A model generated the notes under the pieces. The model was given only the letters and a program-made list of their open reading frames with translations, was not told the DNA's origin and did not search any database. Shown piece after piece: positions 14,430 to 30,173 of a stretch of 64,000 nt of DNA (positions are counted from its first letter, which is position 1; each line of letters begins with the position of its first letter). The position numbers and the translations under genes were made by a program. Source of the DNA: a virus (Duplodnaviria > Caudoviricetes); the IMG/VR virus record IMGVR_UViG_3300033067_001757, positions 1-64,000 of that record; one strand, written 5' to 3'.

Positions 14430-15230
14430 TTAATCGTTGATGAAGTCTTTTATAATGTTAGTTATGATATCTCCAAAGTTCTCTCTTACTGTTATAACAG
14501 GTTTACCGTTCCTAACTTTTACAACCGGTTTACCATTACGGTATTTTACAACAGGCTTTGGTGTTCTGGTAGAAGAATAATGTTGAGTCGGTTCTGGCTT
14601 ATTTTCAATATCATCTTCTGGTTCTTCTTTATCGGGTGTGGATAATGAAGGAGTTAATGGTACTGGTTTCTCAGGTTTCTTATCTTTATTATCGGGTTTC
14701 TTGTCATTCGGTGATTTTGGCTTTTTGGGTACACCTTTCCTGAGATCATCAGGAGCATCTGATTTGCCGGGAGTGAAATCTGCTATAGCTATTATCGTGG
14801 CAATATTTCCATCACCGCCTGAATTAAAATTGGATGCGGGTGGTTGAGTGAAATTCTTCTGACTCGATAAATTCCAGTTCTTAATTCTGTCAAGGTGAAA
14901 CATCCTCCAACCAGGTTTGGCGCGGTGAGCTCGTCCTGTTTTCTTTGCTGAAGCTGATTTACTATTCACACCTATCCAGGCCCTGATATATTCATCATTA
15001 TTTAAAACTTTTCCGGAATGGCTATCACGATAACCGCGACCATAACATACTACTTGTACGTCTGTACGCCAGCCTTTTTCTTCATGACCGGGATCACCTT
15101 CCTCATCACCTTCGTAGTAGAAGGCACAGAAGCGCTTATCTTTTACCAGGTCTATAATTGCCTGTTTGTTGACCTGAAAGCCCTCGTTGAGGCTTATTTC
15201 GAGTAATACGTCGGTTATTGTTTCTACCAC
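14430..15230 (-). CDS. WYL-like domain protein with Pro/Lys-rich linker
   Basis: FYYEG ... YIRAW ... GWRMFHLDRI. Confidence 0.65.
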   Translation of the reverse strand: MVETITDVLLEISLNEGFQVNKQAIIDLVKDKRFCAFYYEGDEEGDPGHEEKGWRTDVQVVCYGRGYRDSHSGKVLNNDEYIRAWIGVNSKSASAKKTGRAHRAKPGWRMFHLDRIKNWNLSSQKNFTQPPASNFNSGGDGNIATIIAIADFTPGKSDAPDDLRKGVPKKPKSPNDKKPDNKDKKPEKPVPLTPSLSTPDKEEPEDDIENKPEPTQHYSSTRTPKPVVKYRNGKPVVKVRNGKPVITVRENFGDIITNIIKDFIND

Positions 15231-16316: not shown

Positions 16317-16817
16317 TTATTTATCTTTATTTGCCGAATGTGAATGAAGTATAATAAAGGCTACTGAACCTTTAGAAGAAATATTAAATTTTTCCATTAT
16401 CTGTCGATAGGTATGACCTTCTTGACGATATTTAATAATATTATCATGGTCATGTACCTTTATGTAAGAGGTAGCTAACATAGCAGCCTGAAATCTTAAC
16501 TCCTTACTTTTATCCATCATATTATCTTGATGTGTTCCAATTCCAATATTCCAATCATAATTACATAAACTATCGCAATTCAAATGCCTTATCTCCATAT
16601 CTGCTTCAAAAATCTTATCTCCATATTTTTGATATCCAACCAATCTATGGATTGGAATCGCATATGTACTTCCATTCATTCTAATACTAAATTTCCTATA
16701 ACCTCTATTTGTTACAGTTCCTTTAATAATCTTTCCCTTTGGTGAATATGTAACATTTTCAATCACTCTGTAACCTCTATTATAGACAAATAATAATGAT
16801 TCTTTTTGTTTACTCAT
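16317..16817 (-). CDS. HNH homing endonuclease
   Basis: IHRLV ... IRHLNCDSLCN ... NIGIGTHQDN; C-terminal HTH. Confidence 0.88.
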   Translation of the reverse strand: MSKQKESLLFVYNRGYRVIENVTYSPKGKIIKGTVTNRGYRKFSIRMNGSTYAIPIHRLVGYQKYGDKIFEADMEIRHLNCDSLCNYDWNIGIGTHQDNMMDKSKELRFQAAMLATSYIKVHDHDNIIKYRQEGHTYRQIMEKFNISSKGSVAFIILHSHSANKDK

Positions 16818-16898
16818 TTAGTTCTTTATTAGTACATATATAAATATGTACCAATGCGGTTCAAAACGATTCGAACCAGAACTTTTTTATAGAACTTG

Positions 16899-16986
16899 CG
16901 GAGAACAGAGTAATCGAAACTCACCCAACTGAATGGGTTCTCGTTTAGCAAACGAGCGGGGATACCACTTCCCTCCTTTACTCTCC
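16899..16986 (-). tRNA. tRNA-Ser(GCT), probable 8/4 fold
   Basis: CTCGT-TT GCT AA-ACGAG, long variable arm, G73, acceptor GGAGAGTA/TGTTCTCC, T stem GAGT/ACTC. Confidence 0.85.
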
Positions 16987-16992
16987 AAATTG

Positions 16993-17076
16993 TAACCCAG
17001 GTAGTATTCGAAACTACTCACCCAAATGGGATGTGATTTACAGTCACACGCACCTCTCCTACTGTGCCGCTGAATT
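16993..17076 (-). tRNA. tRNA-Tyr(GTA)
   Basis: TGTGA-CT GTA AA-TCACA, long variable arm, TTCGAAT T loop. Confidence 0.88.
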
Positions 17077-17082
17077 ATACTG

Positions 17083-17169
17083 TAGCGGTAACCGGCTTCG
17101 AACCGGTACGGACATTGCTGTCCAAGAGTGTTTAAGACTCTCATGTGCTTCCAATTTCATCATACCGCT
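17083..17169 (-). tRNA. tRNA-Leu(TAA)
   Basis: AGCGGTA/TACCGCT, AGAGT-CT TAA AC-ACTCT, long variable arm, GGTTCGAAGCC. Confidence 0.92.
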
Positions 17170-17174
17170 ATTAG

Positions 17175-17251
17175 TAGCCCGAGTCGGAGTCGAACCGACA
17201 GACGATCAATACATCCTAAGTGTATCCGCTTTCCCGTTTGCGTACCAGGCC
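17175..17251 (-). tRNA. tRNA-Leu(TAG), short variable arm
   Basis: ATACA-CT TAG GA-TGTAT, GTCGGTTCGACTCCGAC. Confidence 0.9.
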
Positions 17252-17253
17252 AT

Positions 17254-17288
17254 AAAAACAAAAAACCCTCACCGGTTAAATGAGGGCT
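17254..17288 (-). terminator. attenuator terminator A
   Basis: AGCCCTCA-TTTAACCGG-TGAGGGTT then TTTTGTTTTT, ending 2 nt before tRNA-Leu. Confidence 0.85.
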
Positions 17289-17322
17289 AAAAAAAAAAAT
17301 ATCTCTTAGTTTAGTACATACC

Positions 17323-17391
17323 TCATCCCCAATTATCGTCCAGATAACTTAACGAACTCAAGGAGAGATATAGATTAATATTGTGTTTCAT
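17323..17391 (-). CDS. leader peptide A, MKHNINLYLSLSSLSYLDDNWG (Leu/Ser/Tyr sensor)
   Basis: ATG..TGA, 22 aa, 11 consecutive L/S/Y codons; lies between promoter and terminator. Confidence 0.85.
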   Translation of the reverse strand: MKHNINLYLSLSSLSYLDDNWG

Positions 17392-17395
17392 AATG

Positions 17396-17427
17396 CGAAG
17401 GTAGCTATAATTATTGAGACTACCAAA
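17396..17427 (-). promoter_or_regulatory. Bacteroidota sigma-A type promoter of tRNA array A
   Basis: TTTG-N20-TACCTTCG, 4 nt before the leader ATG. Confidence 0.7.
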
Positions 17428-17499
17428 TATAAATATACAGAGGTCTACAAAAACGATTAAAATAATTACCATTGTTCATCCCAGTTTTTATTTGCATGT

Positions 17500-17931
17500 T
17501 TGTATAATTTATGTGATAATAAATATTGGAGATGTACAGAAAATATCTATTTTTGTAAAATGAAATTATTTATAATTATAATAATCACTATTCTCGTGTT
17601 GATGGTATTACCCATTATTATCCATGAACAGTATTATGGAGAACCGGTTTCATATGGTCATTATTATCTACAGAAGAACTATAAAGACGCTTCTGCGTTG
17701 TTTACTATATTGACAAAAAAAGATACCGATATATTTCTATGGTGCTGTGATTGTATTTTATTCTATGCAAAAAAACTAAATGTATCATATGAAGAATTGA
17801 ACATATATGTTTTCATCATATGGCAACCATATCTGATAATTTTATTTGGATACTTGTATATATCAGTATTGATTAAAAACATCAAACTTCGACGAAAGTT
17901 GCATCAAACAATTCCAGTAACAAATCCGTAA
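17500..17931 (+). CDS. membrane protein (true start may be the later Met, MKLFIII)
   Basis: Two TM segments, SYEELNIYVF motif. Confidence 0.6.
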   Translation: MYNLCDNKYWRCTENIYFCKMKLFIIIIITILVLMVLPIIIHEQYYGEPVSYGHYYLQKNYKDASALFTILTKKDTDIFLWCCDCILFYAKKLNVSYEELNIYVFIIWQPYLIILFGYLYISVLIKNIKLRRKLHQTIPVTNP

Positions 17932-19288
17932 GATTTTCTCGTATTCTTACAACTGGTTTACCATTTTTCATTTTAACTACAATTTTACCGTCTGCACCAA
18001 CGGTATAAACAGGTTTAGCTACATGTGATCCATGTTTAGCCGACTTGTCATCATCGTCTTCTTTAGATTTAATATTAGAAACAGTATCTACTTTTTTCGA
18101 TACATCTGGTGTAGGAGAAGATCCTGTAGTTGTGACTGATTTATTTTTGTCTGGTTTAGATTGTTTACTGGTAGCTATATCTCCAAAAGAATCTTTTGAT
18201 TTTTTGTGTTTAGTACCTTCTTTACCAGCCATCATATTAGACGAAAGAGTGATAGTGATCTTTTTTCCTTTAGATGAGGTGTCTGGATTTTCAAGATAAG
18301 CAATATGTCTTACGGCCTGATATGGTGTAGCATTATCTTTTTTCATAACATACACAATTTTCTCCATATAATTCATATCTTTTAGATCATCTGATGTCAC
18401 TGTCTTAGAAGCACCTTTTGAAAAATCATATGTATCTGTAATTGTGTATGAACTATCTGCGTTTTTTTGATACGTAAACCTTCCCAATGTAGTTGCTACA
18501 CCGAATGCATCATTTGATGTAAGAGTTTTAAATGCTGTTGTGAGTGTACTTGGTCCGACATTATTTGCATATATATTCGCAACATCTCCACCATAATCTT
18601 TATATTCGGTAGCACCACGATTAACTTTACCTGTACGCTTAATGGCATTATTTATAACATCTGCCATTATTTTCTTCTGAGCCTTACTAAAATCTTTACC
18701 TGATAAGTCTTTAGTCAAATATAACTGTGCAACGTTTGGAAAAGCCTTTCTGATATACGAAGAAACACCGGAAGCTATTTTATCACCTATACCAGAATTA
18801 GCTTTATTTGTAGAATCAAATTCAGCTTTACCGGCTTTGCCAGTACTATCTATAGTTATTTTATTACCCGTGGTTGAAAATACATCTCCATTACTGATGC
18901 GGCAATTAAAAATGGCCAATTTTTTAGCAGCGGTAGCAGCTTTTTTAAAGTCTGTAGGATTAGATTTTTTAGCAATATTCTTCTTTACCGTTATATGAAA
19001 ATCTTTCTTTTTATCAACTTTCTGTTCCATATCCTTGTAAAGAGAATCGATATCCTGTGGACTCATTGAATTAAGCTTGTTACCAAAATTAGTCTTGCTT
19101 ATATTTTCTATGTCCTGTTTGTGTGAATTATCCATCTGAGATAACTTCACTCCTCCTATAGATAAAGAACTTAAAAACAAGCTTAGTCCGGAAAAAATAT
19201 TTAAAAATAATCCTTCCTCAATATTTTCTTCATTTTCCGGTATTTTTAGTAAATCTAATTCTTCAAGTAATTTAGTAAATGTTTGCAT
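17882..19288 (-). CDS. Lys/Ser/Asp-rich protein, possible virion internal protein
   Basis: 468 aa ORF; N-terminal LLEE motif; C-terminal motif shared with 14430-15230. Confidence 0.75.
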   Translation of the reverse strand: MQTFTKLLEELDLLKIPENEENIEEGLFLNIFSGLSLFLSSLSIGGVKLSQMDNSHKQDIENISKTNFGNKLNSMSPQDIDSLYKDMEQKVDKKKDFHITVKKNIAKKSNPTDFKKAATAAKKLAIFNCRISNGDVFSTTGNKITIDSTGKAGKAEFDSTNKANSGIGDKIASGVSSYIRKAFPNVAQLYLTKDLSGKDFSKAQKKIMADVINNAIKRTGKVNRGATEYKDYGGDVANIYANNVGPSTLTTAFKTLTSNDAFGVATTLGRFTYQKNADSSYTITDTYDFSKGASKTVTSDDLKDMNYMEKIVYVMKKDNATPYQAVRHIAYLENPDTSSKGKKITITLSSNMMAGKEGTKHKKSKDSFGDIATSKQSKPDKNKSVTTTGSSPTPDVSKKVDTVSNIKSKEDDDDKSAKHGSHVAKPVYTVGADGKIVVKMKNGKPVVRIRENLTDLLLELFDATFVEV

Positions 19289-19327
19289 ATATAATATAAA
19301 TATAAGAAATATCCCAAATTAATTCGG

Positions 19328-19399
19328 GGTATAAGGTCGGTAACGGTCCGACTTCTTCTCCTTCACAGGGAGACGCTTCACTTTAAAGCTTCAAACACC
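19328..19399 (-). tRNA. tRNA-His(GTG)
   Basis: TCTCC-CT GTG AA-GGAGA, G-1:C73; two T-T mismatches in the acceptor; T loop ACCGTTA. Confidence 0.8.
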
Positions 19400-19409
19400 A
19401 TGTTTCAGA

Positions 19410-20090
19410 TTATTTCCTTTTGAAACGTTGCCAATAACCTTTAGGTGGTTTATCAACGTTTAATTTATGATATCTTCTTCGAACAGTATTCGCTGAAACC
19501 TTATACATCTTTGCAATATTATTTAATGAAAACTCCCATATTAATTTACTCAATTCTTCATCTGAAATGATAAATTTTGGTTCATATATTCGCTTACTCT
19601 TATTATCAACCTTGATCTTTTTATTATTTCGTCCGGCGAAAGTATTAGTTTGTCTGTGGCAGTTAGGGCAAAGAAATCTCAAATTTTCAATTTCACAATT
19701 AGTCCAATCCCCATCTATATGATCAATATCTAAAGTTATATATTCATCTAACCATTTTGACAAAGTACATACACCACACTTATATTCAAAACCTTTCTCC
19801 AGCAAAGCTCGTTTTAATGTTTTATGGTTCACTCTATATTCCTTATTCCTTGTGAGAATATCATCCGCTTGTATCCTTTTTTGATAATTAGGATTTCTTT
19901 TTCCGGCATATACACTTTGTCCTAAAAAATGTGAAACATCTATATCATATTCTTTTATACGATTTCTAATTAATTCATAACTACCACCAGATGCTCTGGC
20001 TCCCAATCTTCTGCAAACATCGGCATATGTTATAGATTCTTTCACAACCGATTCTATAAGTTCTCTTGTATAAGTCCTCTTAGTTGACAT
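19410..20090 (-). CDS. HNH homing endonuclease
   Basis: CGVC ... LDIDHIDGDWTN ... NLRFLCPNCH. Confidence 0.92.
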   Translation of the reverse strand: MSTKRTYTRELIESVVKESITYADVCRRLGARASGGSYELIRNRIKEYDIDVSHFLGQSVYAGKRNPNYQKRIQADDILTRNKEYRVNHKTLKRALLEKGFEYKCGVCTLSKWLDEYITLDIDHIDGDWTNCEIENLRFLCPNCHRQTNTFAGRNNKKIKVDNKSKRIYEPKFIISDEELSKLIWEFSLNNIAKMYKVSANTVRRRYHKLNVDKPPKGYWQRFKRK

Positions 20091-20159
20091 TATTATATTT
20101 ATAATAAATATCAGAGAGGTATAAGCGAAATTTAAAAAGAATGCACTTATACATTATAG

Positions 20160-20230
20160 ATGTCCCGCTTCGAATTGAACGAAGATCACAAGATTCAAAT
20201 TCTTGTATAATACCATTATACCACAAGACA
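20160..20230 (-). tRNA. tRNA-Gln(TTG)
   Basis: TGTCTTG/CGGGACA, CAAGA-AT TTG AA-TCTTG. Confidence 0.85.
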
Positions 20231-20236
20231 ATTTTG

Positions 20237-20308
20237 AGCCCAGTACCGGTCTCAAACCGATCTCTTCTGATTACAGGTCAGTTGCTTCATCAACAAAGCT
20301 TACCAGGC
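20237..20308 (-). tRNA. tRNA-Thr(TGT)
   Basis: GCCTGGT/ACTGGGC with C2-G71; CTGA-CC TGT AA-TCAG (C33). Confidence 0.78.
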
Positions 20309-20314
20309 TAAAAG

Positions 20315-20386
20315 TAGTACCACTTGGAGTCGAACCAAAACCTTCTGTTCTTCAGACAGACGCGCAGACCACTACGCCATAGCACC
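20315..20386 (-). tRNA. tRNA-Phe(GAA)
   Basis: TCTGT-CT GAA GA-ACAGA, GGTTCGACTCC. Confidence 0.9.
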
Positions 20387-20392
20387 ATATAG

Positions 20393-20465
20393 AAGTGGAA
20401 GAGGAACTCGAAGCCTCGCGTACCGGGGTTGCAATCCGGAGCATTACCATCTTTGCTATTCCACT
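20393..20465 (-). tRNA. tRNA-Cys(GCA)
   Basis: AGTGGAA/TTCCACT, U73, CCGGA-TT GCA AC-CCCGG. Confidence 0.87.
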
Positions 20466-20471
20466 ATGTTG

Positions 20472-20542
20472 CAAGGGATACCCGAATCAAACAGGTACCA
20501 ACTGGGTTGGAAGCAGTTGTACTATCATTATACTAATCCCCC
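20472..20542 (-). tRNA. tRNA-Trp(CCA)
   Basis: GGGGGAT/ATCCCTT, G73, ACTGC-TT CCA AC-CCAGT. Confidence 0.82.
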
Positions 20543-20550
20543 GTAAAAAT

Positions 20551-20643
20551 AACACACAAGGCCAACGACTCTCTCGTTGTGGATTCGGTAGAGCTTAGTA
20601 ACCTCATGCTTACATAAGTCGTATGCTCTCACCTTGTATGTCC
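20551..20643 (-). ncRNA. unidentified three-way-junction RNA inside tRNA array B
   Basis: Closing stem ACATACAAGG/CCTTGTGTGT; inner stems AGAGC/GCTCT and CAACGA/TCGTTG. Confidence 0.5.
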
Positions 20644-20646
20644 TCG

Positions 20647-20720
20647 TCGAGATTTAAGGCATCGAACCTTACTGATATCTTGGTCCCAAACCAAGTGACC
20701 CACCTTGAGTCCGAATCTCG
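20647..20720 (-). tRNA. tRNA-Pro(TGG)
   Basis: CGAGATT/AATCTCG, CTTGG-TT TGG GA-CCAAG. Confidence 0.9.
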
Positions 20721-20727
20721 ATATAAT

Positions 20728-20757
20728 AAAAAACCCCGAAACATTTCTGTCGGGGCT
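20728..20757 (-). terminator. attenuator terminator B
   Basis: AGCCCCGA-CAGAAATGTT-TCGGGG then TTTTTT, 7 nt before tRNA-Pro. Confidence 0.85.
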
Positions 20758-20785
20758 ATTAAACTTATGTTAGATTATAGATGTT

Positions 20786-20881
20786 TTACCATCCCATTCC
20801 ATCATACATATGTTTGTCCCCACCGAACGGTTGTGTCGGCCAGAAGGTAAATTGACATGTATGTGTAAATGTGTTGTTCAT
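20786..20881 (-). CDS. leader peptide B, MNNTFTHTCQFTFWPTQPFGGDKHMYDGMGW (Thr/Phe/His/Cys/Gln/Trp/Pro sensor)
   Basis: ATG..TAA, 31 aa, A-rich upstream context, 16 consecutive codons from the seven amino acids of array B. Confidence 0.88.
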   Translation of the reverse strand: MNNTFTHTCQFTFWPTQPFGGDKHMYDGMGW

Positions 20882-20896
20882 TGTTTTGTTTTTTAA

Positions 20897-21105
20897 AAGA
20901 TAAACAGCCGTCAAATCCCGCTGAAGTTATCTATTGTTAAAGTGTAACAGGGATCGCTTCTTTCAGCGTCAGACATACAAGATGTTCTGTTACAAAGAGT
21001 AATCGTGATTCGTGGTACACTTTTAAGTGCCTTCGCTCAAACGTCCTGGACGTACAATTACTAAAATTTAGATAATCACCAATACGTTACCGGTGAGGTT
21101 ATCTG
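20897..21105 (-). ncRNA. unidentified multi-domain structured RNA upstream of leader B
   Basis: Four consecutive stems: AGATAA..TCACC/GGTGA..TTATCT, AGTAATTG/CGATTACT, TGTAACAG/CTGTTACA, AGATAA/TTATCT; no ORF in the track. Confidence 0.45.
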
Positions 21106-21122
21106 TTAATAAATATCAAAGA

Positions 21123-21362
21123 CTATTGTAAAACGGTTATTGCTCTTGCGTACCTACCATAATTATCGTTTACAGAACCGGTTCGGAATGCTATATTCTT
21201 TTCACCGAGTCCAACCTCGTATTCTTTTAAAGACATTGTCAGTTCTTCAAATATCCGTTTCTGTCTCTCAGGATTTAAATACATAAAAACATAATATGTT
21301 TTACAATGATCACACTGTTCTGGACACTTACTATTTCCTTCGATATCACGCTGGCATTTCAT
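21123..21362 (-). CDS. hypothetical Cys-rich protein
   Basis: 79 aa, directly after the promoter at 21372-21403. Confidence 0.55.
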   Translation of the reverse strand: MKCQRDIEGNSKCPEQCDHCKTYYVFMYLNPERQKRIFEELTMSLKEYEVGLGEKNIAFRTGSVNDNYGRYARAITVLQ

Positions 21363-21371
21363 AATATGAAG

Positions 21372-21403
21372 CGAAGGTAGTATTTAATTAGAGAACTTCC
21401 AAA
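21372..21403 (-). promoter_or_regulatory. Bacteroidota sigma-A type promoter
   Basis: TTTG-N20-TACCTTCG. Confidence 0.65.
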
Positions 21404-21404
21404 T

Positions 21405-21695
21405 TTATTTTCCATTCATCTTGCCCAGATATACACCGAGACTATCCTTCAATTGCAGACTTTGTACCGTCAGGTCATTAATCTGGAGACTGTAGATCAG
21501 TACAGAATCAATCTTCTGCGCTTTACCGGCATCGATCATCAGCTTCGTCTTATCAATAATTTGGAATGCGTTTTGAGTCAGAGCCAGGGAATAATAATTT
21601 ACCTGCTGCAGGTTGTATGCACCTTGTGTTGAGGATAGTACTGAGCATGACCCAAGGATGAATGGGATTACGAGTAATGTGATGAGTTTTTTCAT
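21405..21695 (-). CDS. lipoprotein
   Basis: MKK + hydrophobic stretch + LGSC lipobox. Confidence 0.75.
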   Translation of the reverse strand: MKKLITLLVIPFILGSCSVLSSTQGAYNLQQVNYYSLALTQNAFQIIDKTKLMIDAGKAQKIDSVLIYSLQINDLTVQSLQLKDSLGVYLGKMNGK

Positions 21696-21786
21696 AGATG
21701 AAAATTTGTATTAATATTTGTATATATAAATATCAAGGAGTCTATATTCTGGCAGCAGAATGGGATTTGTGTCGGAGATTAGTATG

Positions 21787-21859
21787 TGGAAAACAGTTGA
21801 TTCGAACAACATCTCCCGGTTTGCAAAACCAGTGCTTTTGCCAATTAAGCTATGCTCCC
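21787..21859 (-). tRNA. tRNA-Ala(TGC)
   Basis: G3:U70, CTGGT-TT TGC AA-ACCGG; bulged acceptor with a 4-bp T stem. Confidence 0.85.
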
Positions 21860-21865
21860 ATTATG

Positions 21866-21938
21866 TTGAAGAAGTGAATTATGCTATCACAACCTCTGAA
21901 GTATCAGTTCAGCGCTCTGACTGTTGAGCTATTCTTCA
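21866..21938 (-). tRNA. tRNA-Ile(GAT)
   Basis: TGAAGAA/TTCTTCA, CTGAA-CT GAT AC-TTCAG; atypical T loop. Confidence 0.85.
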
Positions 21939-21945
21939 ATGTATG

Positions 21946-22018
21946 TTGTCCCTACCGGTTATGATCCGGTTACCTAATGATTATGAGTCATTTGCTCTAC
22001 CGATTGAGCTAAGGGACT
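21946..22018 (-). tRNA. tRNA(CAT), Ile2 (lysidine) or elongator Met
   Basis: AATGA-CT CAT AA-TCATT; lacks the three initiator G-C pairs. Confidence 0.85.
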
Positions 22019-22068
22019 GTAAAACAGAATAAAGAGTTGCGCATCGTTGAGAGGTTCTTACTCTAATG

Positions 22069-22142
22069 CGGACTATACCGGTAACAATCCGGTCATCTCT
22101 CCCGTGACAGGGGAGCGTCTTCATCGTGCAGACTCATAGTCC
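22069..22142 (-). tRNA. tRNA-Asp(GTC)
   Basis: GGACTAT/ATAGTCC, G73, CTCCC-CT GTC AC-GGGAG. Confidence 0.88.
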
Positions 22143-22147
22143 TTATG

Positions 22148-22220
22148 TATCCCCAATGGAATTCGAATCCATATCATCTCATAGAAAGTGAGATATCCTA
22201 AGCCATTAGACGATGGGGAC
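22148..22220 (-). tRNA. tRNA-Glu(TTC)
   Basis: GTCCCCA/TGGGGAT, TCTCA-CT TTC TA-TGAGA. Confidence 0.88.
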
Positions 22221-22289
22221 TGGTTGGCATCCTAAACTCCCGTGCAAGGGATAAACCTGGCCATTTAGGTTTTGTTCTACCGGCAACCA
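22221..22289 (-). ncRNA. unidentified long hairpin abutting tRNA-Glu
   Basis: Nested stems TGGTTG/CAACCA, CCTAAA/TTTAGG, TCCC/GGGA. Confidence 0.35.
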
Positions 22290-22306
22290 CAAGTGTCTGG
22301 CACCAG

Positions 22307-22519
22307 CTACTTCCATTGTGTCTTTCTGTTATGCTTCCAGGACTTGTATTGTCTCACCTGGTACATCATAAGCTCTTTACGTTTCCATCTCCTTACTGGG
22401 CTGCTACGGTAGTAATTTACACCTTCGTCCCAGTATCTGTCCATGAACTTATCATTAGTCACAATCTTATATTCCTTTCTGCAGGTTGTGTGACTACTGA
22501 TACTTCTGTGTGGTTTCAT
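22307..22519 (-). CDS. small basic protein within the tRNA array
   Basis: 70 aa, Arg/Lys/Trp-rich, ends KSWKHNRKTQWK. Confidence 0.7.
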   Translation of the reverse strand: MKPHRSISSHTTCRKEYKIVTNDKFMDRYWDEGVNYYRSSPVRRWKRKELMMYQVRQYKSWKHNRKTQWK

Positions 22520-22537
22520 TGTTGTAGGTTTTAGTAC

Positions 22538-22564
22538 CTACAAGAAATCGTATGTTTTTTTCAT
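22538..22564 (-). CDS. 8-aa upstream ORF MKKTYDFL
   Basis: Its TAG lies in the 5' arm of hairpin TTGTAGGT-ACTAAA-ACCTACAA just upstream of the next ATG. Confidence 0.5.
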   Translation of the reverse strand: MKKTYDFL

Positions 22565-22627
22565 AACGTAAATAATGTTTTACATGGTATACCCATCTGT
22601 GTAAAAGATATTTTACAAACATATCCA

Positions 22628-22897
22628 TTATTCTAAATCTGGATACTCACTATAAAAACTAAGCTCATACATATTTTCACCGGTTTTTATCTGTCTGTAA
22701 TATAAATAATCAGGTGATATACCTTTATAATTAACCCTGTTAGCATAAACAGAATCCTTTACGAGACCTGTTTCGGTTATGTTCATATTTTCCAGATACT
22801 GTTTTTCATTACGAAATTTTTCAATCACATCAGGATTAGCACTCTTTAAAAAACTCGCATTGGCCAACGTTGAATCAATCTTTTCAAGTCTTGTCAT
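22628..22897 (-). CDS. hypothetical protein; N-terminus resembles the ValRS C-terminal tRNA-binding coiled coil
   Basis: LEKIDSTLANASFLKSANPDVIEKFRNE resembles the ValRS motif KLxNxxFxxxAPxxVVxKE. Confidence 0.5.
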   Translation of the reverse strand: MTRLEKIDSTLANASFLKSANPDVIEKFRNEKQYLENMNITETGLVKDSVYANRVNYKGISPDYLYYRQIKTGENMYELSFYSEYPDLE

Positions 22898-22980
22898 TGT
22901 GAAATAAATTTAAAAGAAGCTACCAGAGCTACGTGTTTCTTTTTGTTCCCGTTCCTGGTCTTCGCTAAAGCTTCTCTAAT

Positions 22981-23028
22981 TGGAGCCGAGGGGCAGTGTG
23001 CCCACTGTGCATTCCCTTTCAACTCGGC
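22981..23028 (-). ncRNA. tRNA-like minihelix ending in encoded CCA
   Basis: GCCGAG ... CTCGGC T CCA, 48 nt, no anticodon arm. Confidence 0.4.
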
Positions 23029-23608
23029 ATGTAAATTTTAGGATAAAGATAATCCTCTCGAACCCCTACCAAATCCAATATTTTTACCACAAAATGTATC
23101 CGTTTGTGTGTGACAATTTGGACATAATAATCGAACATTATCAGGAAAATTATTACCGGAATCACCATCTACATGATCAACCTGTAAAGTGATAGGCTTT
23201 TCATTCCATTCAAAAATTCCACAAGATTCACAGTTATATCCTCGTTCATAAGCAATTAGTTTCCGTAATGTATTCCGTTTATTAATCTGCCCATTTTTAT
23301 ATTTAACTAATGATACAGTTTCATGCATATGAATTTTATGACATTTAACACTGCAAAATTTATTGCTTTTATTTGACTGGGAGACACATGTTTTTCCGCA
23401 GATTATACAATCGAAAAATTTCTTTGGTTTCTTATTTTGTTTGCTCGCACAACTTCTTGAACAATGTTTTGGAAATTTACTCTTCTCTAACTGTGTTGGT
23501 GTTAAAGATACGCTATACTCTTTGTTACATCCTTTACAATGGCAACTATATACCCCTTTGCACAAACTTTTTAGAGAACTTATCAAATTTATCGTCTTTT
23601 AGTGTAGA

Positions 23609-23899
23609 TTGGTACTTTCAAAAAATAAATACTGCTATATGAAAGTTCTAAAGGAGTATATTACTTATGAAGGTAAAAACTTTGGTGAATCAATTAACGA
23701 TGGTATTGCACAAGTTGAGATTATTAAATTAAGTGAAAAGCTTTCAAGTTTTACCAAAGATATATTTAATTCAAAAACTGGTTTTATTGATATAAAATCA
23801 AATGGTGCAATTGAAATTGAAGACTTTCCCGATGATCTGCAAAATTCTATCATAGACTATCTTAAAATTTCCAAGGATAATCATTATACGAAACCTTGA
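23609..23899 (+). CDS. IS passenger, hypothetical protein
   Basis: ORF inside the TIRs; probable start at MKVLKE. Confidence 0.55.
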   Translation: MVLSKNKYCYMKVLKEYITYEGKNFGESINDGIAQVEIIKLSEKLSSFTKDIFNSKTGFIDIKSNGAIEIEDFPDDLQNSIIDYLKISKDNHYTKP

Positions 23900-24037
23900 G
23901 CCTTATATCTTTATCATATAAAATTCTAACAATCTCCCACAAAGACGTTTTTTGTTCTTTTGTTAAGTGACAAGTAACTTCAATGGGTATACCGATAACT
24001 TTGGTTACTTTGAATTCTTCGGTGTTTATCATGAATA

Positions 24038-24238
24038 CTAATTAAGTAAATTTACTCCACCGTTACGGTAAATAGAAGAATCAAATTCTTTAATACAATC
24101 TCTTATCATATTAATTTGAGCATAATCGGATGTTTCCATTGAAATAATCTGATTAATTAAAGAACAACACTTTTTTGATTTTGATTCCAAACTTTGCTTT
24201 ACCGAGACTATATCCTTTTTTACATTCTCTAATTCCAT
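24038..24238 (-). CDS. IS passenger, hypothetical protein
   Basis: 66 aa, preceded by the ATATTTATA motif. Confidence 0.5.
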   Translation of the reverse strand: MELENVKKDIVSVKQSLESKSKKCCSLINQIISMETSDYAQINMIRDCIKEFDSSIYRNGGVNLLN

Positions 24239-24294
24239 ATACTTTGTTTTAGTATATATAAATATATAGAGGTAGTGATTATCAAATTAAAATA

Positions 24295-24492
24295 TCAGAA
24301 AGCGTATATGTAAATAATTATAATCATACCGATTATAGTTGCAAAATTCATCCACACCATTATAGACTTCTCTTTCATCTTTTCTTTACCACTAATAGCA
24401 TTTCTGGTATTTTTTAAAGCTTCTTTCAAAGAGGTCATTCCGTAGAATATCAGACTTATTACTATTAATAAACCGATGAGAATATATGGCAT
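24295..24492 (-). CDS. IS passenger, two-TM small membrane protein (paralog of 10962-11153)
   Basis: Shared GKEK-containing loop between two TM helices. Confidence 0.6.
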   Translation of the reverse strand: MPYILIGLLIVISLIFYGMTSLKEALKNTRNAISGKEKMKEKSIMVWMNFATIIGMIIIIYIYAF

Positions 24493-24549
24493 GGTAAAGA
24501 ATTGGATAATTAAAATTGACGGTACTGATATTTATATGAAAGTACAAAT

Positions 24550-24750
24550 ATGATAACCTCTTTTGATGAATTAGAATCCCAAGGCGCTAAATTCTATTAT
24601 GACCCGCATCAAGATAAGGAAATTGACCCACCTCACTATTATGCAATTGATAATAAATGTTGGACACTTATTAATATAGATGAAGATGGAACTCCGGAAT
24701 ACATGGGAATACAATTTGAATTGATCGCGTATCCAGAATTATTTACTTAG
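24550..24750 (+). CDS. IS passenger, small acidic protein
   Basis: 66 aa, preceded by GATATTTATAT. Confidence 0.55.
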   Translation: MITSFDELESQGAKFYYDPHQDKEIDPPHYYAIDNKCWTLINIDEDGTPEYMGIQFELIAYPELFT

Positions 24751-24973
24751 TTTTTTCAACTTCACTCATTGAGTATTCGACAAATTCGTTTTTAGTATTT
24801 TTAAATACATGTTTGTATACTTTTTGAAATTGCTTTTTGGATTGGTCTACATAAATTAAAATTTCACCTGTTTCTTTAAGTTTAAATTTATCACCTGCTT
24901 TAATAACAGTCTCTGTAGATTTTACAATGTTTACTTTCTTGCCAGCCCTAATACGTATTTTAAATGTTTAAGA

Positions 24974-25714
24974 TTAATCCTTAACGCAACGAACAGAAAA
25001 GCCCCAGGTCTTTTGAATCTCGTCCGCGTAGATGGTGCCACCGCCATAGTTTATGTAGTGGTACCAGGCGTAGTTAAGCAAGGTATACTCCGTAGTACTC
25101 CACCAGAAACCTGTGATACCAGCACCGTAGAAAGATTCGATGTAATAATCATTGAAGTGATGGTAGCCACCCGGAAGCGCTGTGAATCCGCTGCTGTTAG
25201 TAGCATCGGCGTTAGGGGCATACCATAAACCGGTCCCAGCTTCTATGGTTCCGGTTGATTTCATCTTGCCACCCGCTACTGCATAGCCGCCTAAATAAGT
25301 AGATAATGTTGTCCATTCTGCCTCACTTGGTACATGCCAACCTTCAGGGGCTAGTCCCCTTGGATCATGTACAGCATACCAGTTGTATAACTTGCCATAA
25401 ACAGCACCCGTGGCAGAATCGTTATTGTACCAGCACCATGCACCGGTAGTTAAGGAAGCCCATTTGTGACGGTCTTTTACCTGTGGTATCTTGTCCCCAT
25501 TTCTGTAACGGGTTACGTCAAGGTTCTTTTTCATCCAAACTTGAGTACCTATTCTAACAGTGTTACCAGCAAGAACTTTATTATCGTTAAGTACATCTTG
25601 GCTTATACTTTCACTTGTAATACCTGAAGTTTGAACGGTGCTGTTTTCTTTTTTACAGGAGATTGATAGTGATATCAGCAAAGCTGAAATACTTATTGTG
25701 ATTATTGTTTTCAT
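24974..25714 (-). CDS. FISUMP (Fibrobacter succinogenes major paralogous) domain lipoprotein
   Basis: SISC lipobox; IGTQVWMKKNL, YGKLYNWYA, PEGWHVPS..EW, SGFTALPGG, GFSVRCVKD. Confidence 0.92.
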   Translation of the reverse strand: MKTIITISISALLISLSISCKKENSTVQTSGITSESISQDVLNDNKVLAGNTVRIGTQVWMKKNLDVTRYRNGDKIPQVKDRHKWASLTTGAWCWYNNDSATGAVYGKLYNWYAVHDPRGLAPEGWHVPSEAEWTTLSTYLGGYAVAGGKMKSTGTIEAGTGLWYAPNADATNSSGFTALPGGYHHFNDYYIESFYGAGITGFWWSTTEYTLLNYAWYHYINYGGGTIYADEIQKTWGFSVRCVKD

Positions 25715-25744
25715 TGTAGGTGATATTTATATAAAATAAAGTTT

Positions 25745-25948
25745 ATGATAAAAATAAAGTTTAATGTAGACAAGAAAAAAGAGGGGGATTTAAATGAGAA
25801 AGTTACAATGTCCGTAGAAACTAATGAAATAGAAAATTCTTCTGATACGGCATTGATTGAAAGTATAATACAATGGTCAGCAGAACACCTTGAATATTTA
25901 CAGAAAAAAATAAGTCAATGGAATGATGTTTTAAATCAACCTCGTTAA
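25745..25948 (+). CDS. IS passenger, hypothetical protein
   Basis: 67 aa, preceded by GATATTTATATA. Confidence 0.55.
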   Translation: MIKIKFNVDKKKEGDLNEKVTMSVETNEIENSSDTALIESIIQWSAEHLEYLQKKISQWNDVLNQPR

Positions 25949-26247
25949 ATTGTAGGCAGCATAATACCATTTTCAGACAAGAAATCTGTAAATTTTTTGA
26001 TATGGAAAAAGCCACCACTGACATATAAAAAGTAAACATCCAAGTCGTCTTTGGAAAATCTATCCGAGGTTACTTTTTCATCTTTCAAATTCAATAAAGC
26101 GAGTTCATCAATGTACTTTGCGAACAAATCACTTCTGGACGGAGCTATTATTAGTCTTGCAATCACTAAATTTTTGTTTACACCAACTCTAGTTGAAACC
26201 AGACTTCTTAATTTTTCTTTTATTGATTTTGCTTGTTCTAAGTTCAT
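25945..26247 (-). CDS. IS passenger, hypothetical protein
   Basis: 100 aa, convergent 4-nt overlap. Confidence 0.55.
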   Translation of the reverse strand: MNLEQAKSIKEKLRSLVSTRVGVNKNLVIARLIIAPSRSDLFAKYIDELALLNLKDEKVTSDRFSKDDLDVYFLYVSGGFFHIKKFTDFLSENGIMLPTI

Positions 26248-26359
26248 TTTAAAGGATTTAGTAGCACAAGATACAAAAATCTATTAGACATACTTTAACA
26301 ATATTAGGTAGTACTTTGAACAAAACATGTCTATCTTTGTGTAACAAATAAAGAGATAT

Positions 26360-27286
26360 ATGTTCAACTCATTTAAGAATCTTACAGAAGTTATACTCCA
26401 CTTTTCTACTGATAAAGTTTGCAGGGAATTCTTAGAGACCAAGAGATGGAACGGTACTCCGACCTGTCCTCATTGTGGTTGTGATAAGTGGTATAAGTTG
26501 AATGATGGTAAAACATACAAGTGCGGTAACAAAGAGTGTTACAAGAAATATACCGTTACGGTAGGAACGATCTATGAGAATACAAACGTTCCTCTTACTA
26601 AATGGTTTGCTGCTGTTTATATAATCACCGCTCATAAGAAAGGAATAAGCAGTATCCAGTTGTCTAAAGACATTGGTGTTACTCAAAAGACTGCCTGGTA
26701 TATGAATCATAGAATCAGACAGATGGTTGGAGAAAGGCATCCAGAAGCATTAGAGAACACTGTAGAAGTGGATGAAACCTATGTAGGTGGGAAGATGAAG
26801 AACAAACACAAGAAGGTTAGAGCGGAAGCACATGCTAACAATATAAGCCATACAGATAACAAGACAGGTGTAATGGGTTTCTTGGAAAGAGGAGCAGGTG
26901 TACGGTTAAATGTTATTGATAAAACCAAGACATTTAAAGAAATGGTTAAGGGTAATATTGCTTTAGAAGCTATTGTAATTACAGATAGCCTAAATGCTTA
27001 TACCGGCCTTGCTAAGGAGTTTAAAGGTCATGAGGTGGTTAACCATAGCGAAGATGAATATGTACGTGGTGAGTTCCATACAAACACTATAGAGGGCTTC
27101 TTTTCATTCCTAAAGAGAAGTATCTACGGTTGTTACCACAATGTAAGTCCTAAGCATTTACAGAGATATTGTAATGAGAATAGCTACCGGTACAATACAA
27201 GAGATTTGAAAGATGGTCAGAGATTTGAGATAACTTTGTCTAACATTGAAGGAAGACTTCCATATAAAACTCTAATCGGTAAATAA
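26360..27286 (+). CDS. IS1595 (ISXO2-like) DDE transposase
   Basis: CPHCG..C Zn ribbon, KKGISSIQL, VEVDETYVGG, ITD, HTNTIEGFF, HLQRYCNE..YRYN. Confidence 0.96.
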   Translation: MFNSFKNLTEVILHFSTDKVCREFLETKRWNGTPTCPHCGCDKWYKLNDGKTYKCGNKECYKKYTVTVGTIYENTNVPLTKWFAAVYIITAHKKGISSIQLSKDIGVTQKTAWYMNHRIRQMVGERHPEALENTVEVDETYVGGKMKNKHKKVRAEAHANNISHTDNKTGVMGFLERGAGVRLNVIDKTKTFKEMVKGNIALEAIVITDSLNAYTGLAKEFKGHEVVNHSEDEYVRGEFHTNTIEGFFSFLKRSIYGCYHNVSPKHLQRYCNENSYRYNTRDLKDGQRFEITLSNIEGRLPYKTLIGK

Positions 27287-27460
27287 TGGCAAAGGCAAAG
27301 AAGGCAACAAAGCCTAAAAAGATAAGACAGGAGAACTATGAAACTAAGTTAAAGGTGAATGCATCTTTTGAAGATGTGATAGGATGGAGTGTAGAAGGTA
27401 ATCCTAAGCCAAAGACTAAGCCATTGAAGAAGTAGACTGTAGATATGTTTAAGAGATCAT

Positions 27461-27486
27461 TCCCGCTTTATGAGCGGGTTTTTTTG
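27461..27486 (+). terminator. intrinsic terminator after the transposase operon
   Basis: CCCGCT-TTATG-AGCGGG followed by a T run. Confidence 0.75.
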
Positions 27487-27531
27487 TTTCCTGCAGTGTA
27501 GATGTTGTGAATTTAGTTATATTTTAGATTC

Positions 27532-28020
27532 ATGAATACTAAACGAATAATTGCTATTAGAAAATTAGACAATGTTTTAAAAATTCTATCAGATTCAACC
27601 GAAGCCGAAATTCAAAATAATGTTCCGATTGCCATACTTGACGTTTTTGAAATTAGTGAATTTTATAAAAACGCTCATAAAACTGAATTGAAAAATCATG
27701 AATTTAATCTTATTATAGATAAGTTATTAAAGGATGACTATATATTCAAGGAACAAATTGATAAATCACAACCACCACGATTTGGTATTAACTATATTGG
27801 TTATATATTTAACTCTGAAGGTGGTTATGAACAAAAAATGATTAATGACGACGACGAAAATACGCGGATGGATAAGATAGAAGAGAATCAAAAATTCCAT
27901 AGGCGTGCCCTGACTTGGCTAACATCTCTCGTCGCTGTCGGGACGTTAATAGCTGCGATTTATTATTCAGTAGAACTCTTGAAATATTTTCATGTTTTAC
28001 CTGATCCTTTTCATTGCTGA
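27532..28020 (+). CDS. IS passenger, protein with a C-terminal TM helix
   Basis: 162 aa, possible winged-helix N-part, hydrophobic C-terminus. Confidence 0.65.
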   Translation: MNTKRIIAIRKLDNVLKILSDSTEAEIQNNVPIAILDVFEISEFYKNAHKTELKNHEFNLIIDKLLKDDYIFKEQIDKSQPPRFGINYIGYIFNSEGGYEQKMINDDDENTRMDKIEENQKFHRRALTWLTSLVAVGTLIAAIYYSVELLKYFHVLPDPFHC

Positions 28021-28343
28021 GTTCTATATCTCTTTTCTTAAATAAATTTATAAGCCATTTCATAGTATATTGATTTTTAAAAAGTTGCGAATTCTTGTCC
28101 TAAGCTGTATATAGTTGCCTTTACAATTGAGTGTAATATCTAATCTCTTAACTGTAAACTTCCCATTATTGAATCTTGTTTTATTAAATTCAAAATTCGG
28201 ATTACTGGTACACCTACTAACATGATATGCAAACTGTTGATGTTTATCATAATTTATTATCTCCAAACAATACTTACATCTCTTTTCCATTTATTGCTGC
28301 TTTATAATAAATATCAGCAATGAGTAAAAATGAAAATATTATG

Positions 28344-28415
28344 AGCGATAATGCAGTAACAATCTGCATACCCCGATTTGGAAGACCGGTATGTATTCAT
28401 CAACACCTTTATCGC
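28344..28415 (-). tRNA. tRNA-Gly(TCC)
   Basis: GCGATAA/TTATCGC, U73, CCGGT-CT TCC AA-ATCGG. Confidence 0.87.
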
Positions 28416-28516
28416 ATATACATTTGGCTAACTTTAAAATCTTATACTCAGCCAAAACTATCTTCCAACGTTACCCGGACCAGACGACCGACTGCCTGGA
28501 TCCGGGGTTTCGTTTG

Positions 28517-28593
28517 TGGTTGCGAAGATCGGGTACGATCCGATAGTCTCAGGGATATGAGCCCCGTGTGTTCTCCATTTACACCACCTCACA
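28517..28593 (-). tRNA. tRNA-Met(CAT), initiator-like
   Basis: CGGGG-CT CAT AT-CCCTG (three G-C pairs), T1-A72, encoded CCA. Confidence 0.85.
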
Positions 28594-29134
28594 ATTTTAT
28601 TAAACCATTATCAAACTCCCAATGACAATTAGGACATAATCCTATTAAATTATCTATATGATTGATTATAGAAATCAGTGTATAATCATCAAAATCAGAT
28701 ACAGCTTTAATGTGTGCTATTTCAAAATGCTTATCATACCCACATAAATAACAACATTTAGATTTATCACTGCGATAGTAAGTCGCTTCGGCATGACTAC
28801 GTATTGACGATCGAGCACTCTGCCAATTTTTCTGTGTTTCAAATATGTTACCTTTTGTTCTATATATTAAAAGATCGGCTCTCTCTTTTTTAGGTGGCTT
28901 TTCTTTTACTTTTATAACTCTCACTCTCTTTTTATTATTAAATATTGCTGCACAAGATCTTGAACAGAATTTTTTTACTTTGGTTTCGGCGGGTTTTCTA
29001 TTATCTGGAATCATAATCATTTCATTACAATTCAAACAATAATTAGGATTCGCATAATATTCATCTACCCTTTTCTTTCTAATAATCGGTGCCATTTTCT
29101 GACCACCCATTGCGTGTGCGTGTTTCGGTAACAT
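28589..29134 (-). CDS. HNH homing endonuclease
   Basis: FCSRSCA, CYLCG..EIAHIK..NHIDNLIGLCPNCHWEFD. Confidence 0.92.
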   Translation of the reverse strand: MLPKHAHAMGGQKMAPIIRKKRVDEYYANPNYCLNCNEMIMIPDNRKPAETKVKKFCSRSCAAIFNNKKRVRVIKVKEKPPKKERADLLIYRTKGNIFETQKNWQSARSSIRSHAEATYYRSDKSKCCYLCGYDKHFEIAHIKAVSDFDDYTLISIINHIDNLIGLCPNCHWEFDNGLIKL

Positions 29135-29244
29135 ATAGTTCTTCTATATAAATATCAGATACCTACAATTTCGAATACATTATCCGCAATTATTTTCAAA
29201 GAACTCTAAACTACCTCTCCAGTCCACCCCTGGAATATTTAAAG

Positions 29245-29320
29245 AGGGAAATCTCAGATTCGAACTGAGGATCTTTTGATTAACAGTCAAATGCATTGAG
29301 CCGGACTATGCTAACTTCCC
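29245..29320 (-). tRNA. tRNA-Asn(GTT)
   Basis: GGGAAGT/ATTTCCC, TTTGA-CT GTT AA-TCAAA, CTCAGTTCGAATCTGAG. Confidence 0.9.
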
Positions 29321-29321
29321 T

Positions 29322-29520
29322 TGCGGCTAAGCTTTTAATTACGAGTCTGGCTGTTAAGCCCTCTACGAAGGAGACCATCTACTGATGCTGCTCGACCCCT
29401 ATACGACAGATTTAAACAGGATTGTTAATCCTTTCGGACTGAAAACCGTTTCCCTTTTTAACTACACGCAGAAGAGTAACTGACCTATCTTTGATCACGA
29501 TTCGTGAACTGATAATAATT
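29322..29520 (-). ncRNA. unidentified ~200 nt non-coding spacer, candidate structured RNA
   Basis: No ORF in the track, higher GC than the flanking genes, AGTCC-GAAA-GGATT tetraloop hairpin, CGAG/CTCG stem. Confidence 0.35.
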
Positions 29521-29523
29521 GTG

Positions 29524-29594
29524 AACAGCAATCCGGATTTGAACCGAAACTAAGAAGTTAGAACCATCTTGTGCTTCCATTACACCATAGCTGC
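29524..29594 (-). tRNA. tRNA-Arg(TCT)
   Basis: D stem GTGT/GCAC fixes the register AGATG-GT TCT AA-CTTCT; A20 present. Confidence 0.8.
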
Positions 29595-29604
29595 TTATAC
29601 TTAG

Positions 29605-29676
29605 AAGGCCCTGGGAGAGTCGAACTCACCGTCTCGACGTTCGTAGCGCCGGATCCTTCCATTGAACGAAAGGCCC
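29605..29676 (-). tRNA. tRNA-Arg(ACG)
   Basis: GGGCCTT/AGGGCCT, CGGCG-CT ACG AA-CGTCG, A20. Confidence 0.9.
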
Positions 29677-29680
29677 TTGT

Positions 29681-29728
29681 TTAATCAAGAGTCCTTCGTC
29701 TTCGGTATATAAGCACTGTGTTGTTCAT
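29681..29728 (-). CDS. internal mini leader peptide MNNTVLIYRRRRTLD (Arg sensor)
   Basis: ATG..TAA fills the Val-Arg spacer; CGA AGA CGA AGG; stop 4 nt before tRNA-Arg. Confidence 0.72.
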   Translation of the reverse strand: MNNTVLIYRRRRTLD

Positions 29729-29741
29729 AATATTTTTGTTG

Positions 29742-29813
29742 TAGTCTCCAGGGATTCGAACCCTACCTCTAACTTTGTAAGAATTAGTTTCTGCCCGAGT
29801 GAATTATGAGACT
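29742..29813 (-). tRNA. tRNA-Val(TAC)
   Basis: AGTCTC/GAGACT, TAATT-CT TAC AA-AGTTA, AGGGTTCGAATCCCT; acceptor/T junction 1 nt short. Confidence 0.82.
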
Positions 29814-29821
29814 GTATTTCG

Positions 29822-29896
29822 TGACCCCGGTGAGGCTTGAACTCACAACCTTTCGGTTAAAAGCCGAAAGCTCTTATCCATTTGAGCTACAAGGTC
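29822..29896 (-). tRNA. tRNA-Lys(TTT)
   Basis: GACCTTG/CGGGGTC, TTCGG-CT TTT AA-CCGAA. Confidence 0.92.
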
Positions 29897-29897
29897 T

Positions 29898-29943
29898 AAA
29901 AAGAAAAAACCCGGTAAGCTCATTTTGGTTTGGCCTCCGGGTT
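29898..29943 (-). terminator. attenuator terminator C
   Basis: AACCCGGAGGC ... GCTTACCGGGTT then TTTTCTTTTT, directly before tRNA-Lys. Confidence 0.85.
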
Positions 29944-29965
29944 CGTATTAGTATCGTGTTATTAG

Positions 29966-30157: not shown

Positions 30158-30173
30158 TTTATTTTTAGAGACC

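Follow-up and report, generated by a model that had tools for sequence, protein, structure and literature searches.

In enterobacteria, transcription attenuation by leader peptides is known from trpL, hisL, leuL and pheL, as well as from the ilvGMEDA leader, which senses Leu, Val and Ile, and the thr leader, which senses Thr and Ile. The locus described here (leader B) shares with the ilvGMEDA and thr leaders a short upstream ORF rich in regulatory codons, an intrinsic terminator and more than one amino acid per leader, and would share with the enterobacterial leaders in general the alternative 1:2 / 2:3 / 3:4 pairings selected by the ribosome position, as modelled here. Besides these similarities, there are differences: the regulated genes would be tRNAs instead of biosynthetic enzymes; seven isotypes would be sensed, and ten in a sister leader, compared to one to three amino acids; the leader runs 12 codons past its reporting codons and stops inside the predicted antiterminator loop; and leader B belongs to a phage with Shine-Dalgarno (SD)-less initiation that probably infects Bacteroidota. 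The Rfam scan over 16800-30300 gave only tRNA matches at E <= 5, and none to the leader families (Thr, Trp, His, Leu, Phe, IlvGEDA and others).

The pheM leader attenuator controls pheST, encoding phenylalanyl-tRNA synthetase, in Escherichia coli. Leader B would resemble it as a leader-peptide attenuation of a component of the translation apparatus through the decoding of its own codons; however, pheM controls a synthetase and senses a single amino acid. T-box riboswitches are likewise transcription attenuators answering to the tRNA status and controlling translation-related genes, but they bind the uncharged tRNA directly and need no translation, unlike the mechanism proposed for leader B, and the Rfam covariance-model scans gave no match to a T-box or specifier structure. 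Regarding phages, the tRNA genes of T4 and of the huge phage LR756511.1 are also clustered, as in large phages in general, and often broken by homing endonucleases; in LR756511.1, the tRNAs come directly after protein genes, unlike the leader and terminator cassettes found here, and to our knowledge no leader-peptide control is known in T4. No account of tRNA genes controlled by a leader peptide was found in a full-text literature search. The proposed mechanism is classical, and what would be new are the regulated genes, tRNAs, and the seven-to-tenfold multivalence.

The window, meaning the whole stretch of DNA that was analysed, corresponds to the initial 64 kb of one 187,243-bp contig (36.7% G+C) from an uncultured phage. 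Its large genome encodes GroEL and a family-B DNA polymerase, the latter being 35% identical to its best match in a cultured phage, Microcystis phage Mel-JY01. All tRNA genes of the phage are located on the minus strand, from 16.9 to 29.9 kb; when low-scoring calls and one gene read by hand are counted, there are 23, which cover all 20 amino acids. The host is probably a member of the Bacteroidota, because the promoter motif of this phylum (TTTG-N17-22-TAnnTTTG) is enriched, with 10 copies against 2.5 expected and as many in none of 100 shuffles, and because an SD-like motif is present in just 10% of the long ORFs. The coding (minus) strand has eight of the 10 promoter copies, and A makes up about 50% of positions -17 to -1 of the ORFs. 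No tmRNA was found by ARAGORN in this phage genome; relative L016 carries a tmRNA gene at 9528-10054 (Rfam 48.5 bits), with its tRNA arrays lying a few kb upstream of that gene. Two otherwise unrelated ORFs of the window, of 468 amino acids (17882-19288, minus) and 266 amino acids (14430-15230, minus), have in common a C-terminal motif, KPV..NGKPVV.(V/I)REN, followed by a short acidic/hydrophobic tail, which from its sequence may be a targeting or packaging signal.

Table 1. Coordinates of the leader B region, its tRNA array and related features of the window.
Feature	Position	Strand	Remarks
AU-rich hairpin AGAUAA..CAGC / GCUG..UUAUCU + UUUU	20898..20932	minus	-10.3 kcal/mol, z = -3.3
Leader ORF B	20786..20881	minus	31 codons + TAA; SD-less, A-rich start context AAAAAACAAAACA-ATG
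In-set run TFTHTCQFTFWPTQPF	20825..20872	minus	16 codons, only the seven isotypes of array B
Region 1	20855..20871	minus	5' half of the run; pairs with the tail as helix P1, putative anti-antiterminator
Region 2	20801..20827	minus	UUCGGUGGGG (20827-20818) + tail (20815-20801); pairs with region 1 or 3
Small stop-codon hairpin	20779..20794	minus	In the antiterminator loop; 4 of 5 pairs change on both sides across variants
Region 3	20748..20775	minus	Pre-terminator strand (20775-20761) + terminator 5' arm CCCCGACA (20755-20748)
Intrinsic terminator	20728..20755	minus	Stem CCCCGACA/UGUUUCGGGG 20755-20734, -11.8 kcal/mol; 3' arm UCGGGG 20739-20734; T6 20733-20728
tRNA array B, first part	20159..20720	minus	Pro to Gln, with a 103-nt insert after Pro
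tRNA-Pro(TGG)	20720-20646	minus	ARAGORN default
tRNA-Trp(CCA)	20542-20471	minus	ARAGORN default
tRNA-Cys(GCA)	20465-20392	minus	ARAGORN default
tRNA-Phe(GAA)	20386-20314	minus	ARAGORN default
tRNA-Thr(TGT)	20308-20236	minus	Rfam 36 bits; ARAGORN at relaxed threshold only
tRNA-Gln(TTG)	20230-20159	minus	ARAGORN default
HNH homing-endonuclease ORF	19410..20090	minus	phrog_10822, E = 2.7e-54; inserted in array B
tRNA-His(GTG)	19326..19398	minus	Last gene of array B; Rfam 32.6 bits; ARAGORN at relaxed threshold only
tRNA-Ile(GAU)	21938-21866	minus	Read by hand
Leader A	17391-17323 (attenuator 17391-17262)	minus	Run LYLSLSSLSYL before Leu, Leu, Tyr, Ser
Ten-residue leader	30085/30049-29966 (attenuator 30085-29901)	minus	Begins MEAERGNDNVIKR from ATG 30049
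Bacteroidota-type promoter motif, example copies	30157-30126, 58549-58518, 56334-56303	minus	

Leader B encodes the peptide MNNTFTHTCQFTFWPTQPFGGDKHMYDGMGW, in which ATG AAC AAC is followed by the 16-codon run, 12 further codons and TAA (20788-20786), and its start context fits the SD-less, A-rich initiation of the phage. The initial annotation had listed sixteen consecutive codons limited to T, F, H, C, Q, W and P, and the minus strand reads exactly so from 20872 to 20825, with all seven residues present and no other. No other in-set run in the six frames of the window is as long, the second longest having 9 codons, and it is the sole 16-mer there with all seven residues and none else. The initial annotation had also proposed to calculate the chance of such a run from genome codon usage: 2.3e-5 such runs are expected per window, and with the amino-acid usage of the phage's long ORFs the chance is 0.224^16 = 4e-11 per position. 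All 16 codons can be read by the anticodons of array B with standard wobble, ACC by UGU being the weakest, and they are common codons of the phage. Two other readings of the region were rejected: a TTG start at 20914, as the upstream in-frame sequence is not kept in relatives, and a plus-strand ORF at 20623-20850, which overlaps tRNA-Pro on the opposite strand.

Array B follows in the order Pro, Trp, Cys, Phe, Thr, Gln, the HNH insertion and His, i.e., exactly the seven isotypes of the run. The Thr and His calls have low scores, the Rfam tRNA cut-off being 29 bits, and the codon run helps to validate such low-scoring phage tRNA calls. The HNH ORF is missing in relative L006, where Gln comes directly before His, and is an insertion in the array; tRNA-His is conserved in L006, L016 and L018. 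Between Pro and Trp, the 103-nt insert (20645-20543, minus) is predicted to form a three-way fold of -33 kcal/mol (z = -4.35, 0/200 shuffles); it is not recognised as a tRNA and is not found in the relatives, whose Pro-Trp gap is 3-5 nt.

The leader and the array are separated by a terminator hairpin, which follows the TAA after a 30-nt AU-rich spacer and whose T-run ends 7 nt before tRNA-Pro; thus, every array B transcript needs terminator read-through. A simple consensus scan missed this terminator because its stem is bulged. In the relatives, it has -14 to -15.5 kcal/mol, and the stem is 100% paired in the five variants compared, with one pair being A-U in the window, G-C in L013 and L018 and G-U in L014 and L015, a compensatory change.

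Upstream of the terminator, the tail of region 2 (20821-20801) has two alternative partners, namely the 5' half of the run (20871-20855), or the pre-terminator strand 20775-20761 together with the CCCC of the terminator arm. The 12-bp antiterminator helix between 20815-20801 and 20775-20761 is 98.3% paired in the five variants, with six one-sided changes that all keep pairing, and GGGG at 20821-20818, or UUCGGUGGGG, pairs with CCCCGACAGAA. The whole antiterminator is 95% paired across the variants, a value reached by 3 of 500 shuffles. As a duplex partner for the terminator 5' arm, region 2 ranks first or second in each of the five variants (-10.7 to -19.3 kcal/mol), and in L014 the two form a perfect 8-bp duplex, GCUGGGGC:GCCCCGGC. 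Helix P1 is present in the minimum-free-energy fold of the free leader and is 90.7% paired in the five variants, its covariation being weak, as 70 of 500 shuffles reach the score. The stop codon of leader B sits in the loop of the antiterminator helix.

The initial annotation had drawn a switch of this kind from short pairings, where a CCGACA in the leader (20839-20834) and another in the terminator 5' arm compete for TTCGGTGGGG (20827-20818). The coordinates are correct and the CCGACA/TTCGG pairings exist, but they are a minor part of the switch: in the window genome, the TTCGGTGGGG:5'-arm duplex by itself is matched by 20 of 200 shuffles, and the larger tail/pre-terminator helix is conserved, for which the short pairings were rejected as the whole switch. 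The 1:2 / 2:3 / 3:4 layout proposed with them agrees with the model and with the comparison of variants as far as its logic is concerned, in a structure larger than the one drawn.

The effect of the ribosome position was modelled with the nascent RNA up to just before the terminator 3' arm and 30 nt masked around each A site. With the A site anywhere from the start codon to codon 16, the terminator 5' arm is sequestered with a probability of 0.66-1.0 in five of five variants, and with the A site at codons 17-20, of just 0.05-0.32, again in all five. The contrast between stalled and passed ribosomes is 0.56 in the window, and dinucleotide shuffles give 0.04 +/- 0.16, none of 100 reaching the observed value. 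With a ribosome at the stop codon and no steric penalty, the antiterminator is still allowed (probability 0.71 in the window model); adding a steric penalty, a heuristic for pairs that tightly enclose the ribosome, gives 0.15-0.38 in four of five variants and 0.70 in L015. Once the full terminator is present, its equilibrium probability is 0.4-0.6 in most stalled states. In these calculations, the B antiterminator is weak and thermodynamically below the terminator, and as the terminator is favoured or equalled at equilibrium in most stalled states, the switch would have to be kinetic.

The same calculations leave some room for a different logic, in which translation of the ORF is coupled to the terminator, and either a stall at the last run codons or tail promotes termination or translation licenses the array, so that tRNAs are produced only as long as ribosomes are active, with no feedback from shortage. 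In the model, the 5' arm is clearly freed only by a ribosome at codons 17-20, and untranslated RNA is not clearly terminator-prone, with the arm paired at 0.29-0.81 across variants and at 0.81 and 0.78 in L013 and L014. With this logic, however, there is no reason for a run made of exactly the array's isotypes. In addition, the classical polarity is clear in attenuator A of this genome, where the 5' arm is paired at 0.85 in the stalled state, compared to 0.12 in the free RNA and 0.16 when the ribosome is at the stop codon, so that in the model attenuator A is a textbook case. Such other logic is therefore considered improbable for leader B.

The layout of leader B is indeed found at two other tRNA arrays of the genome. 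The run of leader A is the longest L/Y/S run in the window (0.015 expected), and in relative L006 this leader has, beyond the run, synonymous changes and a 3-nt deletion that keeps the frame, as would be expected if the ORF is translated. The ten-residue leader, for which an in-frame GTG at 30085 has an A-rich start context, begins with the only 13-mer in the window that holds exactly the ten isotypes of its two arrays, Lys-Val-Arg-Arg-Asn-Met-Gly and Glu-Asp-Met-Ile-Ala. A copy of the Bacteroidota-type promoter motif (30157-30126) lies upstream of it, and its 12-bp antiterminator forms even in untranslated RNA according to the fold model. Taken together, the three leader sets comprise three, seven and ten amino acids without overlap, i.e., all 20.

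Some further features of the sister arrays were observed. Within the 16898-17391 region, the Ser codons of leader A are TCC and TCG, and no Ser(TGA) tRNA was found in the window genome by blastn and ARAGORN; relatives L015-L018 carry both Ser(TGA) and Ser(GCT) in a different gene order, and lack the 468-aa ORF between arrays B and A. The ten-set arrays lie together on one strand within approximately 3 kb in L013. In the window, approximately 6 kb (22221-28342) with genes on both strands are placed between the two halves, including an IS1595-like transposase ORF (26360-27286, plus) and an HNH-like ORF (23586-23038, minus).

The relatives are metagenome contigs (L006 and L013-L023) reached via homologues of the neighbouring 468-aa, 79-aa and 96-aa ORFs, and four of the five leader B variants come from such contigs, the fifth being that of the window. 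All five have an ATG, 31-32 codons and an in-set run no shorter than 14 codons in which all seven residues occur, around the common core H-(Q)-T-C-Q-F-T-F-W-P-T-Q. Replacements within the run stay within the seven-residue set, P->Q requiring two base changes and F->T three, and the tails that follow have diverged and use residues outside the set. Conservation is highest in the run core (85-97% identity) and the terminator region (89-91%), and the tail has 57-90%. When arrays A and B are compared with L013, L014, L016, L018 and L006, leaders and terminators are approximately 90% identical, and the tRNA genes of the same isotype mostly 53-69%, with isotypes and order (Pro, Trp, Cys, Phe, Thr, Gln, His behind leader B) kept. 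From these sequences, the tRNA cassettes appear as a mosaic, exchanged or diverged behind conserved leaders with the roster kept.

The correspondence between run and array is not perfect in all of them. As stated by the initial annotation, the run contains exactly the seven downstream isotypes, and this is true for the window genome and not for the variants: codon 5 is Tyr in four of five, the Phe of the window being the exception, and the leader of the L015 group begins with M-I-T-S-Y-S before the run, where the Ile, Ser and Tyr isotypes are not in array B. In L014, the leader is kept in front of a rearranged array, Pro, Trp, Cys, Phe, Ser, Tyr. As judged from the sequences, these three cases weaken a strict one-to-one reading of run and array. 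In addition, since the relatives are close, the isotype set of the array never varies informatively.

As for the region upstream of leader B, an AU-rich hairpin with its U-run ends approximately 14 nt before the ATG. There is a second copy within 21055-21110 (minus) and a single copy in L013 (about 6333-6367), and the inner stem covaries (CACC/GGUG, CAGC/GCUG and CAUC/GAUG); based on its sequence, this hairpin could be an upstream terminator or an operator. L015 and L018 have a different hairpin in its place, UGUAACAG...CUGUUACA followed by UUUU, which is also seen at 20940-21005 of the window. No exact promoter of the Bacteroidota type was found upstream of leader B, and a sigma-70 promoter scan gave values at background. 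Leader B may either have its own promoter or be supplied by read-through from the upstream arrays, with the attenuators in series.

This lack of a recognisable promoter, together with the conservation of the run core even at synonymous sites (85-97%), a possible constraint on RNA or peptide, would fit an explanation without regulation by decoding, where the hairpin and U-run are a constitutive leaky terminator or an element for pre-tRNA processing or stability, and the small ORF is a micro-protein or an untranslated conserved RNA. Nevertheless, it leaves unexplained why the composition equals the downstream isotypes three times in one genome, in sets that cover all 20 amino acids, and why the replacements in the run stay in the set; moreover, the three leader peptides (A, B and ten-residue) have no Pfam match at E <= 10, and the position-dependent pairing is above all 100 shuffles. 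There is thus only a small chance that this explanation is correct. Finally, a match due to chance or to an annotation artefact, to which the low-scoring Thr and His calls and the position of His 760 nt beyond Gln could point, is extremely improbable, as it was already very unlikely on the statistics of the run, the design occurs three times in the genome and is conserved in relatives, both calls are above the Rfam cut-off and present in relatives, and the HNH ORF is an insertion.

The leader B region is thus interpreted as a multivalent leader-peptide transcription attenuator for the feedback control of the phage tRNA supply, which from the sequence and the fold model is quite probable. Of the features that define attenuators of this class, a short same-strand ORF upstream, the enrichment of reporting codons and an intrinsic terminator before the genes in question are found at the locus, and the mutually exclusive antiterminator chosen by a ribosome stalled in the run is present in the model. 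The claim of the initial annotation as a whole, a translated leader matching seven tRNAs behind a conditional terminator, agrees with every in silico test applied, i.e., the run statistics, the sister leaders, the variants and the fold model.

According to the attenuation mechanism, a low decoding capacity for any of Thr, Phe, His, Cys, Gln, Trp or Pro would stall the ribosome in the run, covering its 5' half and breaking helix P1. This would free the tail to pair with the CCCC of the terminator 5' arm and with 20775-20761, which would prevent the terminator from forming, and the RNA polymerase would run into array B. When decoding is fast, the ribosome would pass the tail and stop at the UAA in the antiterminator loop, blocking both antiterminator strands, so that the terminator would form and transcription would end. 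If the leader is not translated, P1 would hold the tail and termination would be favoured. The net effect would be a negative feedback, where phage tRNAs are made until their codons are decoded quickly, and the demand could come from codon usage that differs between phage and host, or from the loss of host tRNAs in infection or defence. With leader A, leader B and the ten-residue leader, the phage would monitor all 20 amino acids.

The tRNA region compared with phage records by megablast and blastn, and the 468-aa ORF compared with them by tblastn, found no relatives; neither did PolB and HNH protein patterns in IMG/VR, and degenerate DNA patterns of the leader peptides had no matches in IMG/VR and the JGI metagenomes. 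A GT17-like neighbour used as a query found only distant phages, one of which (L002) has tRNA clusters straight after protein genes, without a leader. No independent example of the design was provided by Microcystis phage Mel-JY01, with one tRNA, or Tenacibaculum phage PTm1, with none, and the HNH region of Agrobacterium phage Atu_ph07 has no tRNAs. In LR756511.1 (595 kb), the 40.7-kb region examined contains 36 tRNA genes and no leader/terminator cassettes; as this huge phage is rich in tRNAs and lacks them, leader cassettes are not universal in phages.

A wider generalisation is somewhat favoured: that tRNA arrays of large phages are under leader-peptide attenuation, each behind a 'roster' ORF spelled in its own isotypes, and that three sensors in series split the 20 amino acids here, so that the phage tops up only the codon families that are short. 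It would represent a widespread, undescribed class of tRNA gene regulation, with the most multivalent attenuators known.

The reason for tRNA genes in phages and the control of their expression are still under debate. If the attenuation mechanism is true, this phage regulates its tRNA output through direct feedback from the decoding speed, and textbook attenuation, so far a matter of amino-acid and synthetase genes, would be extended to tRNA genes, with seven to ten isotypes per sensor. It also makes the supply-and-demand hypothesis testable, as the induction of an array is predicted when any one of its isotypes is depleted, and the leader elements offer compact, modular sensors of codon-specific translation speed. 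The virus would thus measure the decoding capacity codon family by codon family and supplement only the shortages, which may arise from codon-usage mismatch, host shutdown or the cleavage of host tRNAs by defence nucleases.
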